The notes beneath the pieces are model-generated. The model was given only the letters and a program-made list of their open reading frames with translations, searched no databases and had not been told where the DNA came from. The translations under genes and the position numbers were made by a program. A stretch of 64,000 nt of DNA. Source: Escherichia phage Ec_Makalu_002. Shown piece after piece: positions 2,206-57,339 of the stretch. The first letter of the stretch is position 1; each line of letters starts with the position of its first letter. The stretch lies in the sequence record MN709127.1; one strand, written 5' to 3'.

Positions 2206-4068
2206 TTACATGTGCTTAACGCGGTTTACCATCTCGGAGTGTTTCCCGTGGTTAAATGGACGCAGATCAACAGATCCAAGATATCCACTAACGCGACGGA
2301 TGACATTCATCTTTTCCAGATTGTCATTGCCGCAATCAGGACAAACAAAACCAGACTCGGTCGCTCTCATTTCCTTAGTAGATCCGCATACATGACATAC
2401 ATCAGAAGGAGTATTAACACCGAAGTAGTGCAATTTATCCATTGCATAGTCTACTACAGTTTCAAGCCCTTTAATGTTGTTTTTCATGTCCGGGAACTCA
2501 ACATAAGAGATCATACCACCAGACGCCAGCCAGTGATAGTCTTTCTCAAAGTCGATTTTCTCAAACGGTGTAACTTTCCGGTCTACGTCAAGGTGGAATG
2601 AGTTGGTGTACCAATCTTTATCGGTAGCACCCTTAACAATACCAAATTGCTCTCGGTCCAGTCGATTAAATCGATAACAAAGGCTCTCGGCTGGCGTGCC
2701 GTAAAGACTAAACCCAAGTCCGGTTTCGTCCTTCCATTTTTCAGTATAATGACGCAGGATTTTAAGAATATGTTTACCGTATCGCTGCGCATCTTCCGAA
2801 TCAAACGGATGAACACCAAACAGGACGCTCAACACTTCATGTAAACCAATATACCCAAGAGAGATACTAGCGCGACCATCTTTCAGCACTTCCAAAATTT
2901 CATCGTTTTGATGAATACGGAAAAATGCACCTTCTGTATACAGCACCGGAGCAACATTGGCTTTAGCCCCTTTTAAAGCGTCTACGCGACTCATGAGCGC
3001 ATCAAAGCAAATAGGCAGACGATTAGCTAGCTCTTGTTCGAATAGCTCAATTCTGCGCATTACAGACGCTTTACCAGCACGACGCGCGGCAATAAGTGCA
3101 ATACGCGGAAGATTCAGAGTCACAACACCTAAGTTATTACGTCCGTCTAATACTTCTTCGCCTTTCTCATTATGCCACACACCCAGGAAGCTACGACAAC
3201 CCATCGGGCTAACCGGAACACTAGATCCAGTGATACTACGGTTATTCTTCGCAGAGATATAATCAGGGTAAAGACGCTTACTAGAACATTCCAATGCAAG
3301 TTGCTTAATATCGTAGTTCGGATCTTCCGGTTTAAGGTTTAATCCTTCTTCTAAGAACATCACCAGCTTAGGAAACACCGGAGTTATACCATCTTTACCT
3401 AAACCTTTAGTTCGAACTTTCAGGATCGCTTTCTGAATCAGTTTTTCTTCCCAGCTAGTACCCATACCAAAGGTTAAAGTCACAAAAGGTGTTTGACCGT
3501 TGGTAGAGAACAAAGTGTTGATCTCATATTCCAACGCCTGATATCCGTCTAGTGTTTCTTTTTCTGTCTTCTCTTGTGCATAGAGAGTATTAGCTTTGAT
3601 TCCGTAGGTTTCGGCATCAGCAAGATGTTTATGATATGTTTTCTTAACATACGGTGCTAACACCTGATCGATGTTTGCTATGGTAGTTCCGCCATATTGA
3701 TGACTTGCCACCTGTGCGATAATTTGAGCTGTTACAGCACATGCAACACCGATCGATTTAGGACTTTCGATTTGTGCGCTACCCAATTTAAAACCATTCT
3801 CTAACATGTCTTTGAGATTAACAAGACAGCAGTTAGTAAACGGCATAGCGGGTGCATAATCCATATCATGATAATGAATATCACCGTCTACATGCGCTTT
3901 ATAGATGTGCTCAGGTAACACGGTTTTAGCAATCTGTTTAGACACAGCACCAGCAATCAGATCTCGACGTGTCGGGAATGTTCGCGCGTCTTTGTTCGCG
4001 TTCTCTTTGCTTACTTCGTTTTCTTTACCCGTTGCGATCTCTGTAATGTCTTTGATTAGTTTTTCCAT
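2206..4068 (-). CDS. nrdD: anaerobic ribonucleoside-triphosphate reductase (glycyl radical enzyme), uninterrupted
   Basis: 620 aa; C-terminal CPDCG zinc motif and RVSGYLG glycyl-radical motif; single ORF, so no intron. Confidence 0.95.
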   Translation of the reverse strand: MEKLIKDITEIATGKENEVSKENANKDARTFPTRRDLIAGAVSKQIAKTVLPEHIYKAHVDGDIHYHDMDYAPAMPFTNCCLVNLKDMLENGFKLGSAQIESPKSIGVACAVTAQIIAQVASHQYGGTTIANIDQVLAPYVKKTYHKHLADAETYGIKANTLYAQEKTEKETLDGYQALEYEINTLFSTNGQTPFVTLTFGMGTSWEEKLIQKAILKVRTKGLGKDGITPVFPKLVMFLEEGLNLKPEDPNYDIKQLALECSSKRLYPDYISAKNNRSITGSSVPVSPMGCRSFLGVWHNEKGEEVLDGRNNLGVVTLNLPRIALIAARRAGKASVMRRIELFEQELANRLPICFDALMSRVDALKGAKANVAPVLYTEGAFFRIHQNDEILEVLKDGRASISLGYIGLHEVLSVLFGVHPFDSEDAQRYGKHILKILRHYTEKWKDETGLGFSLYGTPAESLCYRFNRLDREQFGIVKGATDKDWYTNSFHLDVDRKVTPFEKIDFEKDYHWLASGGMISYVEFPDMKNNIKGLETVVDYAMDKLHYFGVNTPSDVCHVCGSTKEMRATESGFVCPDCGNDNLEKMNVIRRVSGYLGSVDLRPFNHGKHSEMVNRVKHM

Positions 4069-48761: not shown

Positions 48762-50530
48762 TGATTGAACAATTAAACATCCACGAGATCCCACACGTTG
48801 ACGGTGTACCAAGCGAAGGACAGCACCGTATTAATTGGATCAAGAATGGCGAATGTTTAAGCGCAGCAACGACACAGACTGGCAATGACGGGACGCTTAA
48901 CCGCGCCCCGGTTGCAATTCAAGAAAACGTTGCACGCGTAAACGAAAACGCAAAATCAACCGTCGCTAAAGTTAACGAGGTTGTAACGGCGGTTAACGAT
49001 ATTAAAACAACTTTAGGGGTAATTTCTGACGGAAGTATCATTGATGTGGTTAACCAGACTGTCGCAAAAGTTGAATCCGTCGAAGAGAACTTAGGAGAAA
49101 CAGCAAGAACTCTGCAAACAACGGTAGACGCTGTATCAGAACTTAACATCAAGATTGGTGATCGCCCCGCTGCCGATCCGAGCACAAGAACAATCTATGA
49201 TGACATTTCTTTCATCAAACAAGAAATGGGTTCTTATCCTAACTTTAATATCAATGGTTCCCCTGATGCTGGCAGTTCCGGTTCTGGCATCAAATACCGA
49301 GTTATTCAGAATACCGCAGCATTAAATGACCACGGTCGCCGAATCGTTCAGCTTGAAAACGACTGGCAAGATTCTGACGTAGGCGAGTTAACAAGACAAG
49401 TTAACAAAATGCGCAGTGAGATCGGCGACACGTCTCTTGCCACACAAGAAAATGTGTATGTTCGTCTCCGCACCAACGCAAGAAACATTGCTAACCTATC
49501 AAACGAAGTTCTAGAAGTCAAGAAAGCAATTTTGTTTGATTCAATCCCTGATATCGGGACTAAAGTCACTACGCTGGGCACTAATTATGAACTTCTAAAC
49601 AATGATGTTAATGGTGTAGATTCCGGTATTCGTCCTCGTCTTCTGGCTGTCGAGAATAAGATCGGAACGCCTCAATCGGCAGGAAGCATTGATTATCGAT
49701 TAACCAACACAGAGCGAGAATTTTTAGATCTTAAACAGGTTGTTGGTGTAAGCGGTGCTGACGGTTTGCGCGGTGAAGTTGTTCGACTTTCCAATGAGAT
49801 TGGCACTGACAGCGATCGACATACTCTAGCCGGACGTATTAAAGTTGTAGAAAACACTCAGGGTCGGTTAGAAGCAAGCGTACAGGACATGGAACAGCTT
49901 GTAGGTGATCGCGAATCAGGTTTGACCGCTGGCGTTATTAAACTATCAAGTGATATCTATGGCGATGATGGTTCAGAAGATCCATTTACTCAGAAAGGCG
50001 TGATTAAAATCGTCAAAGAGCTACAAACATCTAACGGAAACAAAGTAGATGATGTACCTGATGACGGTTTCCATTATCTTCGTAAACGCGGAGAATGGGT
50101 GCAAGTTGCATATGCTGCTGGAGCATTTAAAAATACCGCAGATATTACGGTTGAACTTGACGAACAGGATGTTTATAAACAGATTCCACTTAACGACATG
50201 GCGGCAGAAGTTAATGCTCGTCAAATGGTTAAGAGCGAATCTCTTGTTACGGTTAACGACAAAGGCTTATTCCGTTGTGATTTCCGTTGTTCTGTAAATG
50301 CGGCACATAACGCTACTTTCGTAGTCGGTATTGCTAAAAATGGTCTGATTGTACATGAGGTACGAAATGGTCATTATGGAGCTGATGATTTAATTAGCTA
50401 TTCTACCAGTGCTTTCCTAAATATTGAAAAGGGCGACCGGATCGATATTCGCATTAAGGGCGTATCCGAAGAAGCATTAGCGCAACAGCTACAAATTAAA
50501 GAGTTCCTCTTTGGAATTTCTCCGGTATAA
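48761..50530 (+). CDS. wac: fibritin (whisker, neck) with foldon-like segment plus extra C-terminal globular domain
   Basis: 589 aa; long coiled coil; foldon-like PDDGFHYLRKRGEWVQV; ~140 aa C-terminal extension. Confidence 0.75.
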   Translation: MIEQLNIHEIPHVDGVPSEGQHRINWIKNGECLSAATTQTGNDGTLNRAPVAIQENVARVNENAKSTVAKVNEVVTAVNDIKTTLGVISDGSIIDVVNQTVAKVESVEENLGETARTLQTTVDAVSELNIKIGDRPAADPSTRTIYDDISFIKQEMGSYPNFNINGSPDAGSSGSGIKYRVIQNTAALNDHGRRIVQLENDWQDSDVGELTRQVNKMRSEIGDTSLATQENVYVRLRTNARNIANLSNEVLEVKKAILFDSIPDIGTKVTTLGTNYELLNNDVNGVDSGIRPRLLAVENKIGTPQSAGSIDYRLTNTEREFLDLKQVVGVSGADGLRGEVVRLSNEIGTDSDRHTLAGRIKVVENTQGRLEASVQDMEQLVGDRESGLTAGVIKLSSDIYGDDGSEDPFTQKGVIKIVKELQTSNGNKVDDVPDDGFHYLRKRGEWVQVAYAAGAFKNTADITVELDEQDVYKQIPLNDMAAEVNARQMVKSESLVTVNDKGLFRCDFRCSVNAAHNATFVVGIAKNGLIVHEVRNGHYGADDLISYSTSAFLNIEKGDRIDIRIKGVSEEALAQQLQIKEFLFGISPV

Positions 50531-50576: not shown

Positions 50577-51509
50577 ATGTCAGGATATGTAACCAATAAC
50601 CCAAGAGAATTAAAAGACGCTATTCTGCGTCGTTTAGGCGCACCAGTAATTAACGTAGAAGTCACAGAAGACCAGATTTACGATTGTATTCAGAGAGCAC
50701 TAGAACTCTATGGGGAATATCATTTCGATGGTGTGAATAAAGGATATAAAGTATTTCGTGTTAGTGCAGAGCAAGCGCAACATGGGGTATTTGATTTAAG
50801 CGATTCTGGAGTATTTGCAGTAACTAAAATAATTCGAACAAACGTAGGTAGCGCGGCTACGATGGATGGCACTGCCGTTTATCCGTGGTTTACCGACTTT
50901 CTGTTGGGTTTAGCTGGTGTAAATGGCGGTTTAGGATCTGGATGTAGTAAATTTTATGGTCCAAATGCAATGGGCGGTGATCTAGGATATTTCGAACAGC
51001 TTATGAGCTATCGAGCCACTATGCAAAATATGCTTAATCCACTGCCAGACTATTGGTATAATAGCGCAAACGGACAACTTAAGATTACAGGAAACTTCCG
51101 AGAAGGTGATCTCATTGTTGTTGAATTATATGTTAAAAGCTATGTAGACGTTCCTGATATGATCGGCGCGGTTGCTGGTTATGCTCATGCTGGAGGATGT
51201 TCTACCGCTGGCGGGATTAGCGCCGTTTATGATAATCCAACTGCTGGTTTAAGCGGGATTGTTGCTGGCATGGGACCGATCAGTGAGAACAAGCAGGGCG
51301 CATATAATAACCGTTGGGTTAAAGACATGGCAACCGCTTTCACTAAGGAGGTGTGGGGGTCCATCATGGCTAAACATCAAGGTCTGCAATTACCAGGTGG
51401 TGTCACTGTTGATGGTATCCGAATCATTGAAGAAGCACGCGCCGACATTGAGAAATTGCGACAAGAACTACTTGACTTAGATCCACCATTTGGTATACTA
51501 ATGATATAA
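50577..51509 (+). CDS. 13: neck protein gp13
   Basis: 310 aa (T4 309); synteny. Confidence 0.8.
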
Positions 51510-51562
51510 AATAAATATGGGTATATGATAACATATACCCTATGTAATATCGGAGATACTAA

Positions 51563-52378
51563 ATGGAACATTATGTATACAAAATAACCAACAAAATAAA
51601 CGATAAGATTTATGTCGGTGTTCGGTCTTGTGATGGATTAGCCGAAGACGATACAAAATACATGGGAAGTGGAAAAATAATAAAACAAGCTATTAAACAT
51701 CATGGATTAGAAAATTTCACCAAAGAGATATTGTCAAAATTTGATAGCAGAGAAGATGCGGATAAAGAAGAGTCAAGGATTGTTACGGTTGATTTTGTCA
51801 AGAGAGAAGACACGTATAATATAGCAGAAGGCGGTGGAACTGTTTGTATGTGGAAGGTTTCTGATGAAGCAAAGATAGAAGAAATGAGAAAAAAGATCTC
51901 AGAGAAAAATACTGGAAGAAAACATACTAAAGATACAAGACAAAAGATGTCCGCATCTCAAAAGGGAAGGAAGCATACGGAAGAAACAAAAGAAAAGATG
52001 AGGCAAAATAACTTAGGAAAAGTTATTGCAGAAGAGACAAAAGAAAAGTTAAGGATGATTAATTTAGGAAAAAGACACACAGAAGAAACGCGAAGAAAAA
52101 TGTCTGATTCACATAAGGGTCTATCCTTATCCGATGAGGTGAAGGATAAGATAAGACAAAAACACACAGGACGTGTTTTTACTAAAGAATGGAGAGAAAG
52201 AATTAGCAAATCTAGAATCGGAATAACTAGCACTAGATCAAGAAGAATAAGCATCAACGGAGTGATATACAATAGCATAGGAGAAGCTGTTATAAAATTA
52301 AACGTTAAGAGAGGATTGATTGTCGGAAGACTTAAATCAAATACCGATAAAAACAAAAATTATTTCTTCGTAGATTAA
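51563..52378 (+). CDS. free-standing GIY-YIG homing endonuclease (Seg-like)
   Basis: 271 aa; N-terminal YVYKITNKINDKIYVGV GIY-YIG motif; repeated KGxKHTEETKEKM NUMOD3-like units. Confidence 0.75.
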   Translation: MEHYVYKITNKINDKIYVGVRSCDGLAEDDTKYMGSGKIIKQAIKHHGLENFTKEILSKFDSREDADKEESRIVTVDFVKREDTYNIAEGGGTVCMWKVSDEAKIEEMRKKISEKNTGRKHTKDTRQKMSASQKGRKHTEETKEKMRQNNLGKVIAEETKEKLRMINLGKRHTEETRRKMSDSHKGLSLSDEVKDKIRQKHTGRVFTKEWRERISKSRIGITSTRSRRISINGVIYNSIGEAVIKLNVKRGLIVGRLKSNTDKNKNYFFVD

Positions 52379-52414
52379 TAAATTGGGGGAGTATTCCCCC
52401 ATTTGGAGTAACAT

Positions 52415-53155
52415 ATGTTTAACAACACTCTTTTTGCTCGCCTTGAATCGCAAAAGGATTATGAGAATACACGACAAACAGAGATTCTCAATCCTTATGT
52501 GAACTTTCACAAATATACAAATACTCAGACGTTAGCCGACGTTATGGTCGCCGAAGCTATTCAGATGCGAGGTGTAGAATTATATTACATCCCTCGTGAA
52601 TTTGTCAAACCAGATATGATCTTTGGTGAGGATGTTCAAAGCAAATTTACTAAAGCATGGAAATTTGCGGCTTATATTAACTCATTTGATGGGTATGAAG
52701 GAGCGGGTAATTTCTTCTCTAGTTTCGGGTATCAAGCTAATGATGAATTAACCATAACCATAAATCCAAATTTATTCAAACATCAAGTAGATAACCAAGA
52801 GCCTAAATCCGGTGATTTATTTTACATTCCTATGAGCAATGATTTATTTGAAATCTCATATGTAGAGCCATATCAGCCGTTTTTTCAGGCTGGCAAAAAT
52901 GCCATGCGTAAAATTATTGCAGAGAAATTCGTGTATAGCGGTGAGGAATTGCGACCAGAATTACAACGCAATGAGGGAATTAATGTTGATGAGTTTGCGG
53001 ATCTGGATCTTGCACCGATCACTAATCTGGACGGGTTAACAGATATCAACTTAGATCAGTACAAAGAAGATAAGCAATTCAGAAGCGAAGGACAAGATTT
53101 TATTGACCCATTTGACCCAATTAATGGCACTGGTTCACCTTTTGCTAATTTTTGA
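52415..53155 (+). CDS. 14: neck protein gp14
   Basis: 246 aa (T4 256); synteny. Confidence 0.75.

Positions 53156-54028: not shown

Positions 54029-57339
<3,311 letters not shown>

Follow-up and report, generated by a model that had tools for sequence, protein, structure and literature searches.

A probable Seg-type GIY-YIG homing endonuclease cassette between neck genes 13 and 14 of Krischvirus phages, and a recoded gene 13 tail linked to it

Introduction

What is the gene that separates neck genes 13 and 14 of Escherichia phage Ec_Makalu_002, and how did it come to lie there? In T4 the two neck genes are contiguous, as the original prediction for this locus had stated, with the end of gene 13 at 94553 and the start of gene 14 at 94555. 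The window analysed here is a stretch of 64,000 nucleotides (nt) of this phage (MN709127.1), a Krischvirus (RB49-like) with the local gene order wac-13-14-15-16-17, in which an open reading frame (ORF) stands between genes 13 and 14. The ORF had been read as a free-standing endonuclease of the Seg/I-TevI type and as a mobile insertion, flanked by two hairpins that could be regulatory or target-related elements. Our preferred answer, to which we assign a probability of about 80%, is that the ORF belongs to a free-standing Seg-type GIY-YIG homing endonuclease cassette that spreads among Krischvirus by intronless homing. Coordinates are collected in Table 1.

Table 1. Locations of the endonuclease gene, its surroundings and the other cassettes of relatives (rows down to gene 14 use window positions; below that, positions within the locus named)
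Feature	Location	Strand	Remarks
Homing endonuclease ORF	51563..52378	+	271 amino acids (aa); Pfam, PHROG, profile and fold matches
GIY-YIG domain	aa 1-92 = nt 51563-51838	+	part of endonuclease ORF
NUMOD3 helix array	aa 101-219 = nt 51863-52219	+	part of endonuclease ORF
C-terminal beta-beta-HTH-beta (HTH, helix-turn-helix) DNA-binding domain	aa 221-271 = nt 52223-52375	+	part of endonuclease ORF
Ribosome-binding site (RBS) GGAG	51552..51555	+	7 nt before ATG; RBS annotated in Ec_Makalu_001
Gene 13 (neck protein gp13, head-tail adaptor)	50577..51509	+	PHROG 211, E=3.6e-40; annotated gp13 in RB49 and relatives
Recoded patch, last 13 codons of gene 13	51471..51509	+	differs from every insert-free relative
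Sigma-70-type promoter-like site	51472..51499	+	TTGACT (51472-77), 16-nt spacer, TGn (51491-93), TATACT (51494-99)
Late-promoter-like motif AATAAATA	51510..51517	+	fits RB49-type (A/T)ATAAATA; weak candidate
Left hairpin GGGTATATG-ATAA-CATATACCC	51519..51540	+	-12.5 kcal/mol, z=-2.9; leader of endonuclease gene
Right hairpin TGGGGGA-GTAT-TCCCCCA	52384..52401	+	-12.9 kcal/mol, z=-1.4 (unexceptional)
Gene 14 (neck protein gp14)	52415..53155	+	Pfam T4_neck-protein, 9e-102
Phi1-type 'SegC'	L012 2316-2900 (Phi1)		194 aa; in Phi1, ECD7, kvi, phiS
E26-type	L002 2495-3391 (E26)		298 aa, 37% identical to window endonuclease
SegF-like GIY-YIG gene	L019 2648-3292 (G37-3)		214 aa; G37-3, G5211
Brandy SegF-like copy	L013 about 2267-2910		frame-shifted; 98% nt identity; gene 13 tail un-recoded
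Fifth type, GIY-YIG gene between genes 14 and 15	L007 3251-4006 (TB34); L005 4120-4875 (MIZ4)		251 aa

The ORF encodes a Seg-type GIY-YIG endonuclease

The ORF is present exactly as it had been called. The encoded protein starts with MEHYVYKITNKINDKIYVGV and has both motifs on which the call was based: a GIY-YIG motif, YVYKITNKINDKIYVGV, at aa 4-20, in which YVY (aa 4-6) and YVG (aa 17-19) are the counterparts of GIY and YIG, and a NUMOD3-like motif, KGRKHTEETKEKM, at aa 134-146. A register search found six NUMOD3-like units, G(K/R)xH(T/S)xE(T/E)xxK(M/L/I), with an exact spacing of 17 aa (aa 118, 135, 152, 169, 186 and 203). These motifs are backed by profile searches, the GIY-YIG domain included: the Pfam families NUMOD3 (E=2.2e-12), I-TevI_DNA-bd (2.9e-6, aa 221-268) and SegE_GIY-YIG (2.1e-5, aa 4-78, just above the curated cut-off) were found, and PHROG 314 ('homing endonuclease') matches the ORF at 1.4e-58. 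A search of PDB with the single endonuclease sequence gave a marginal match to 1I3J only (E=0.17). With a family profile made from 39 homologues, the sole PDB matches are the two halves of I-TevI, namely its catalytic domain (1LN0, 6.8e-10; 1MK0, 1.2e-8) and its DNA-binding domain (1I3J, 4.7e-7).

The catalytic motif residues are intact. In family alignments of 39 and 56 sequences, Y6, Y17, E70 and G91 are invariant and G19, N86, Y85 and G35 are nearly so; Y6, Y17, G19, E70 and N86 align to I-TevI Y6, Y17, G19, E75 and N90, respectively. Two residues past the YIG glycine, all Krischvirus copies have an arginine (R21, in YVGVRSC), where T4 SegA-E have a histidine. I-TevI R27 sits in an insertion relative to the family profile.

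An AlphaFold model (built with 56 sequences) has a mean predicted local distance difference test score (pLDDT) of 92.8, reaching ∼95-98 across aa 1-90. It predicts a beta-beta-alpha-beta-alpha domain at aa 1-92, followed by a hinge that is short and disordered (aa 95-97), then seven helices that repeat every 17 residues and, at aa 228-270, a small beta-beta-HTH-beta domain. The best Foldseek matches of this model in PDB are 1I3J, 1MK0 and 1LN0 (probability about 1), followed by I-HmuI; for 1MK0 and 1LN0 the probability is 0.99-1.0 and the target template modelling score is 0.62, and the GIY-YIG domain of UvrC is also among the matches. The N-terminal domain is thus predicted to have the alpha/beta GIY-YIG fold. 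The protein has only two cysteines (C23 and C95) and therefore no zinc finger; its linker is the NUMOD3 helix array instead.

The ORF is intergenic: it follows the stop codon of gene 13 and precedes the RBS of gene 14, and both flanking genes are complete. Rfam models found no group I intron or other RNA family in the endonuclease region (the lone match has E=0.92). An intron-encoded endonuclease, such as I-TevI proper, is ruled out by the intergenic position, the whole flanking genes and the lack of an intron model match. Taken together, the domains, the fold, the matches to T4 Seg proteins and the absence of an Rfam intron identify a GIY-YIG endonuclease of the free-standing Seg type whose NUMOD3 array is unusually long, and the proposed kinship with Seg and I-TevI enzymes agrees with both the profile and structure matches to I-TevI and the matches to T4 Seg proteins. 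Its identity to any characterised Seg is <45%, and it is a new addition to the Seg family, so far uncharacterised.

T4-like phages commonly carry Seg-like endonucleases. GenBank already labels the gene as a Seg-like homing endonuclease in Ec_Makalu_001, KFS-EC, MIZ4/5 and PHB13, so the identification itself is ordinary; what merits follow-up is the promoter-like rewriting of gene 13 that is linked to the cassette, together with the hotspot character of the junction, which takes up several cassettes; both are described below.

The cassette is present in few relatives and has spread recently

A comparison of the gene 13/14 junction in related phages, as had been suggested, found the ORF missing from most of them: 41 phage records have an intact copy of the 100-nt empty RB49 junction, and in 28 of these it is 100% identical. 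We found the cassette in six records (Ec_Makalu_001, KFS-EC twice, MIZ4, MIZ5 and PHB13). The window copy has Ser at codon 71 (51773-51775), where 13 out of 13 other copies examined have Ala. Owing to this private substitution the exact window protein is not on record, and the A71 form (P0001) was used as the query for public contigs; it occurs on 24 contigs of public assemblies. Among the matches listed, the cassette always lies between gp13 and gp14, in ten places, and the backgrounds vary in their other insertions. The locus is therefore polymorphic for a site-specific insertion, which bears out the view that the ORF is mobile. By alignment, the net insertion is 869 nt and lies 3' of the gene 13 stop and 5' of the hairpin TGGGGGAGTATTCCCCCA, which is present in every empty site; once the rewritten gene 13 tail is counted, the cassette has 913 nt.

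Within a sub-lineage, cassettes differ at 0-4 positions per 913 nt and flanking genes are up to 16% different. In the 370 nt upstream of the cassette, the nearest relative of each carrier is a non-carrier: the window is identical to ELT4 and KFS-EC is identical to MIZ6 (0 differences each), and Ec_Makalu_001 differs from Ec_Makalu_003 at three positions (ELT4, MIZ6 and Ec_Makalu_003 are non-carriers). Eight further independent contigs show the same contrast when compared with the window: 0 differences in the patch described in the next section (39 nt) and 1-4 in the leader and ORF (874 nt), but 1-31 in upstream gene 13 (370 nt) and 24-67 in the start of gene 14 (417 nt). A near-identical cassette within far more diverged surroundings points to recent horizontal spread. 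The two cassette sub-lineages are separated by 22-24 synonymous and 3-5 non-synonymous differences, a ratio of non-synonymous to synonymous change (pN/pS) of 0.03-0.05; the endonuclease is therefore under purifying selection.

Carriers have a recoded gene 13 tail

We compared about 4 kb of flanking sequence between five carriers and six non-carriers. All 12 fixed differences between the two groups in the 2.4-kb left flank are inside a patch formed by the last 13 codons of gene 13, and none was found in the remaining part of these 2.4 kb or in ∼1.5 kb on the right. The patch starts with six consecutive changed bases (51471-51476, CTTGAC in carriers and GAATTA in non-carriers), which change gp13 from EL to LD; they are followed by changes at six consecutive third-codon positions (51485, 88, 91, 94, 97 and 51500) and by changes in the last codon and the stop (51506 and 51508). 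The LD residue pair is found in neither RB49 (ELELLD) nor T4 (ELYLLD). Linkage between patch and cassette is perfect, with 0 differences in the patch among 13 carriers. In our phage collection the patch is found in exactly 8 records, each with an intact homing endonuclease gene (HEG) immediately downstream (the window-type cassette in six, another HEG in G37-3 and G5211), and an exact search of IMG/VR viral contigs gave 0 matches. Since there is no other carrier-linked difference nearby, the patch is the obvious candidate for a cleavage-resistant version of the target. Regulatory or target-related roles had been proposed for the flanking hairpins; the likeliest element of this kind is the recoded patch (51471-51509), which is no hairpin.

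The patch also contains a sigma-70-type promoter-like site. A promoter scan scored it as a 10/12 match with an extended -10 and a predicted start at ∼51506; the RB49 allele of the gene 13 tail has no qualifying site (best score 0), and eight of the 12 fixed substitutions create consensus promoter positions. When the RB49 tail was varied in simulations, 0.2% of random variants with 14 substitutions and 1.4% of synonymous recodings gained a site of at least 10/12 (0.003% and 0%, respectively, if TG is required too). RB49-type phages are without MotA and middle promoters, and their early -35 element favours GTTGAC (Nolan et al. 2006, PMC1524935); in T4, segA, segG, mobC and mobD have their own promoter within the 3' end of the upstream gene (PMC2988022). 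The site in the patch may thus be the endonuclease's own promoter.

The gene 13/14 junction receives different cassettes

At least four different GIY-YIG cassettes occupy the 13/14 junction among the relatives, one of them decaying. The three types other than that of the window are mutually diverged, and each is accompanied, towards gene 14, by its own stretch of recoded or foreign sequence. In the Phi1-type cassette, a TTGACT...TATGAT promoter-like sequence lies inside the leader hairpin, the gene 13 tail is untouched and the stop codon overlaps the gene 14 start. The E26-type has TTTACA-17-TATAAT within a very stable hairpin (-21 kcal/mol, z=-5). The SegF-like gene is inserted inside the native hairpin (G37-3 and Brandy); in G37-3 and G5211 the order is patch, RB49-type stop, half of the native hairpin and then the SegF-like gene, with the GGAG of the hairpin arm as its RBS. 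The foreign tracts at the 5' end of gene 14 are ∼120 nt in G37-3, G5211 and Brandy and ∼420 nt in Phi1. The Brandy copy of the SegF-like gene is frame-shifted and therefore represents a decaying HEG. In an earlier survey (Petrov et al. 2010, PMC2993671), the 'SegC' gene was counted as the single seg-like HEG of Phi1, and RB49 had none.

A fifth cassette lies one gene downstream, between genes 14 and 15, in TB34, FL20, SAP, AV108 and MIZ4/5; it is absent from the window. MIZ4/5 hold both this cassette and the window-type cassette.

Homing as the preferred explanation, and its alternatives

The homing model would work as follows. When a carrier and an insert-free phage infect the same cell, the enzyme would attach to a long site by means of its HTH domain and its six NUMOD3 minor-groove helices and would cut the other phage's gene 13/14 junction; recombination repair from the carrier genome would then copy the cassette in. 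The carrier's own site would escape cleavage, since the junction is split by the insertion and the final 13 codons of gene 13 have been recoded. As the recoded patch forms a sigma-70-type promoter-like site, the gene would have its own early-type promoter, embedded in the essential gene 13, and late in infection it would probably also be read through from gene 13.

Several observations weigh against this account. The equivalent of I-TevI R27 does not appear clearly conserved in the sequence, and the private A71S substitution of the window copy adjoins the catalytic Glu70. The promoter simulation was designed only after the site had been seen, and promoter-like matches across the region are not above chance (seven found, 10.5 expected); on both grounds we speak of the site as a candidate promoter. 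The endonuclease-specific promoters of T4 are middle or late, never early (PMC2988022). Cleavage at a distance of hundreds to thousands of bp from the endonuclease gene is frequent among the free-standing enzymes of T4 (PMC2988022), so the target could lie beyond the ∼4 kb compared. Finally, G37-3 and G5211 have the patch without the window-type HEG; the patch is therefore separable from the cassette and could be a scar of replacement.

It is possible, if doubtful, that the gene 13 tail is a diverged stretch of donor sequence that was co-converted and then hitch-hiked with the endonuclease gene, being neither promoter nor resistance determinant. Expression would then come only from late read-through of genes 13-14 (perhaps also from AATAAATA at 51510), and self-protection solely from the insertion splitting the recognition site. 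The six plain synonymous third-position changes, three of which are outside the promoter hexamers, would fit such an origin, as would the foreign gene 14 tracts of the other junction cassettes, which resemble co-converted donor sequence, and the precedent of seven T4 seg/mob genes that are promoter-less cassettes (PMC2988022). The tract, however, is very short and sharp-edged, and its six-base block alters two residues of gp13 and creates TTGAC; promoter-like sites of this quality are rare under random or synonymous recoding, and no phage in the collection has the patch tail as part of a generally diverged gene 13.

The patch of G37-3 and G5211 has two readings: it may be a module that provides a promoter for any endonuclease gene downstream that has none, or it may be the scar left when a SegF-like cassette replaced a window-type one. 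A more far-reaching proposal, which we offer tentatively and would ourselves bet against, is that the patch is a portable module built by the cassette, combining an early promoter, a cleavage-resistant target and possibly an autorepression operator, and re-used by the SegF-like endonuclease of G37-3 and G5211. The operator role is suggested because the patch is homologous to the putative target, as in I-TevI. If this were true, the price to the phage would be two amino-acid changes in the essential gp13, the re-user would be an unrelated, promoter-less SegF-like endonuclease, and the copy without the patch (Brandy) would be the one that decayed.

Another alternative is that the protein has been domesticated as a DNA-binding protein or nuclease that benefits the phage, by competitor exclusion or by regulation of the neck genes, and that the patchy distribution reflects ordinary Krischvirus recombination. 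The strong purifying selection and the general mosaicism of Krischvirus flanks agree with this, and I-TevI is also a transcriptional autorepressor (PMC2988022); here, too, the putative promoter is homologous to the putative target. We consider domestication unlikely, as carriers make up only ∼10% of the related genomes, the cassette is far less diverged than its flanks (a mark of recent spread rather than of long residence), and the presence of at least four cassettes with a frame-shifted Brandy copy is what a selfish cycle of invasion, decay and replacement is expected to leave. Competitor exclusion is not truly a rival of homing, because both use the same cleavage mechanism. It is very unlikely that the window copy has lost its catalytic activity or is decaying, as the relic of an earlier invasion: Ser71, the uncertain R27-equivalent arginine and the degenerate copy of another HEG at the same site (Brandy) would speak for it, but the ORF is full length in 14 out of 14 copies examined with all motif residues intact, pN/pS is about 0.04, the model is confident throughout (pLDDT 92.8), and A71S is a conservative change at a non-conserved column.

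Hairpins, other intergenic elements and neighbouring genes

Both of the hairpins that had been noted beside the ORF exist, but only the left one is part of the insert. It is missing from the empty sites and is therefore a cassette element; it follows the putative early start (∼51506) and ends 12 nt before the RBS, and it scores as a terminator on the minus strand. The cassette leader copies the native layout of stop codon, few A/T bases, hairpin, GGAG and ATG. The stem of the left hairpin is invariant, and its loop (51528-51531) occurs in two forms, ATAA and TTAT, which are reverse complements of each other.

Two roles considered for the left hairpin found no support. Sequestration of the RBS, as in I-TevI or segB, is not supported, the RBS (51552-55) being outside the stem. 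A strong + strand terminator for gene 13 is contradicted by the lack of a + strand T-tract and by the need of gene 14 for read-through. We found no gene 14 promoter motif inside the cassette and no intervening + strand terminator; transcription towards gene 14 must therefore pass the left hairpin, and the sequence is consistent with expression of gene 14 by late read-through.

The right hairpin is unchanged in RB49 and in all empty sites and is therefore a native element of the 13/14 intergenic region, with the insertion point immediately 5' of it; a part of the insert or a terminal repeat is ruled out by the same comparison. It has variants, GGGGGAGTATTCCCCC and GGGGGAATACTCCCCC, that are exact reverse complements of each other. 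The variants of the two hairpins were seen across loci L004, L005, L006 and L021-L027, and their exact reverse complementarity indicates small flip-flop inversions, not independent point mutations.

No exact T4 late promoter (TATAAATA) was found near the endonuclease gene, only the relaxed AATAAATA at 51510. An A at the first position is tolerated by RB49-type late promoters (PMC1524935), and the motif is kept in all carriers. As a weak candidate, it would initiate transcripts within the 5' arm of the left hairpin. Its frequency is at chance level, so its occurrence is no evidence of function. A direct repeat, D6 (TCCACCATTTGG at 51482 and TCCCCCATTTGG at 52395), was considered as a target-site duplication and was not used; ∼1-2 matches of its kind (11/12) are expected by chance in 1.2 kb, and similar ones are found elsewhere.

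The window-type cassette left the 5' end of gene 14 unchanged (compared with RB49, 0 differences in the first 60 nt and one in the first 330 nt). Inside gene 14 there is an antisense promoter-like site (52608-52579, minus strand) with a perfect 12/12 sigma-70 consensus, TTGACA-18-TATAAT; it points against the late neck genes and is invariant in 12 out of 12 Krischvirus loci compared. Just downstream of this site, in carriers only, the native hairpin and the T-rich end of the cassette together score as a minus-strand terminator.

Two other genes of the window are variable. The wac gene (fibritin, 49077-50530) occurs in two very divergent allele classes with >300 differences in 1.45 kb, and the class is independent of the presence of the cassette (compared with L004, L005, L021-L023 and L025-L027). 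The large terminase gp17 (54523-57339) has 938 aa, compared with about 607 aa otherwise, owing to a 331-aa intein-like insert (about 55033-56025) placed exactly within the Walker A P-loop (SRQLGK/ALDVNT...EFIPTHN/TTAV). Position 1 of the insert, which contains LAGLIDADG motifs, is a non-canonical Ala, and +1 is Thr. The insert is found in Ec_Makalu_003 and some metagenomic contigs and is absent from RB49, Ec_Makalu_001 and KFS-EC; one contig (L023) encodes a gp17 version of 829 aa.

Comparison with known systems

A 36-nt junction in a single genus thus exists in an empty state, with at least four GIY-YIG cassettes and a decaying copy, and a fifth cassette has settled at the next gene boundary, between genes 14 and 15. 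Dozens of sequenced backgrounds make the junction a natural data set in which invasion, replacement and decay of selfish endonucleases are directly testable, as are the supply of an own promoter and self-immunity through the rewriting of an essential host gene. For phage-therapy genomics, the cassette probably drives localized marker exclusion and mosaicism within the neck/packaging module of Krischvirus.

The nearest known systems are the T4 Seg proteins. Like SegA-E, the window endonuclease is encoded by a free-standing intergenic ORF of a T4-like phage, sporadic among relatives, with an N-terminal GIY-YIG domain (Y-x-GSG motif), NUMOD3 repeats and a C-terminal DNA-binding domain. The closest T4 protein is SegB (39% identity over 191 aa, E=5e-30); identities to SegD, SegC, SegE and SegA are 39, 40, 43 and 36%, respectively. 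SegA-E are shorter (140-223 aa, compared with 271 aa and six NUMOD3 units here) and differ in the residue after YIG (His instead of Arg), and none of the T4 homing endonucleases tabulated in PMC2988022 is placed between genes 13 and 14. I-TevI, the td intron endonuclease (1LN0/1MK0 and 1I3J), shares the two-domain logic and the same folds at both ends at 24% identity over the full length; unlike the window enzyme it is intron-encoded and has a zinc finger in its linker, where the window enzyme has a 6-7 helix NUMOD3 array. By analogy, a promoter that overlaps a target-like sequence may be a further shared feature (PMC2988022).

Within the genus, Phi1 'SegC' belongs to the same protein family and lies at the same junction (49% identity over the catalytic domain), but it has 194 aa and its own leader-hairpin promoter-like sequence, leaves the gene 13 tail un-recoded and is followed by a diverged 5' region of gene 14. 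The location of the candidate promoter, in the 3' end of the upstream gene, recalls T4 segA, segG, mobC and mobD (PMC2988022), whose promoters are middle or late, whereas the candidate here is of the sigma-70/early type, and its promoter-like sequence, as the comparison of carriers with non-carriers shows, was created by a cassette-linked recoding of a host gene that includes two amino-acid changes. Finally, seg43(25) of Aeromonas phage 25 has, like the window gene, a stable, unexplained hairpin just upstream of an RBS that is not sequestered (PMC2988022).

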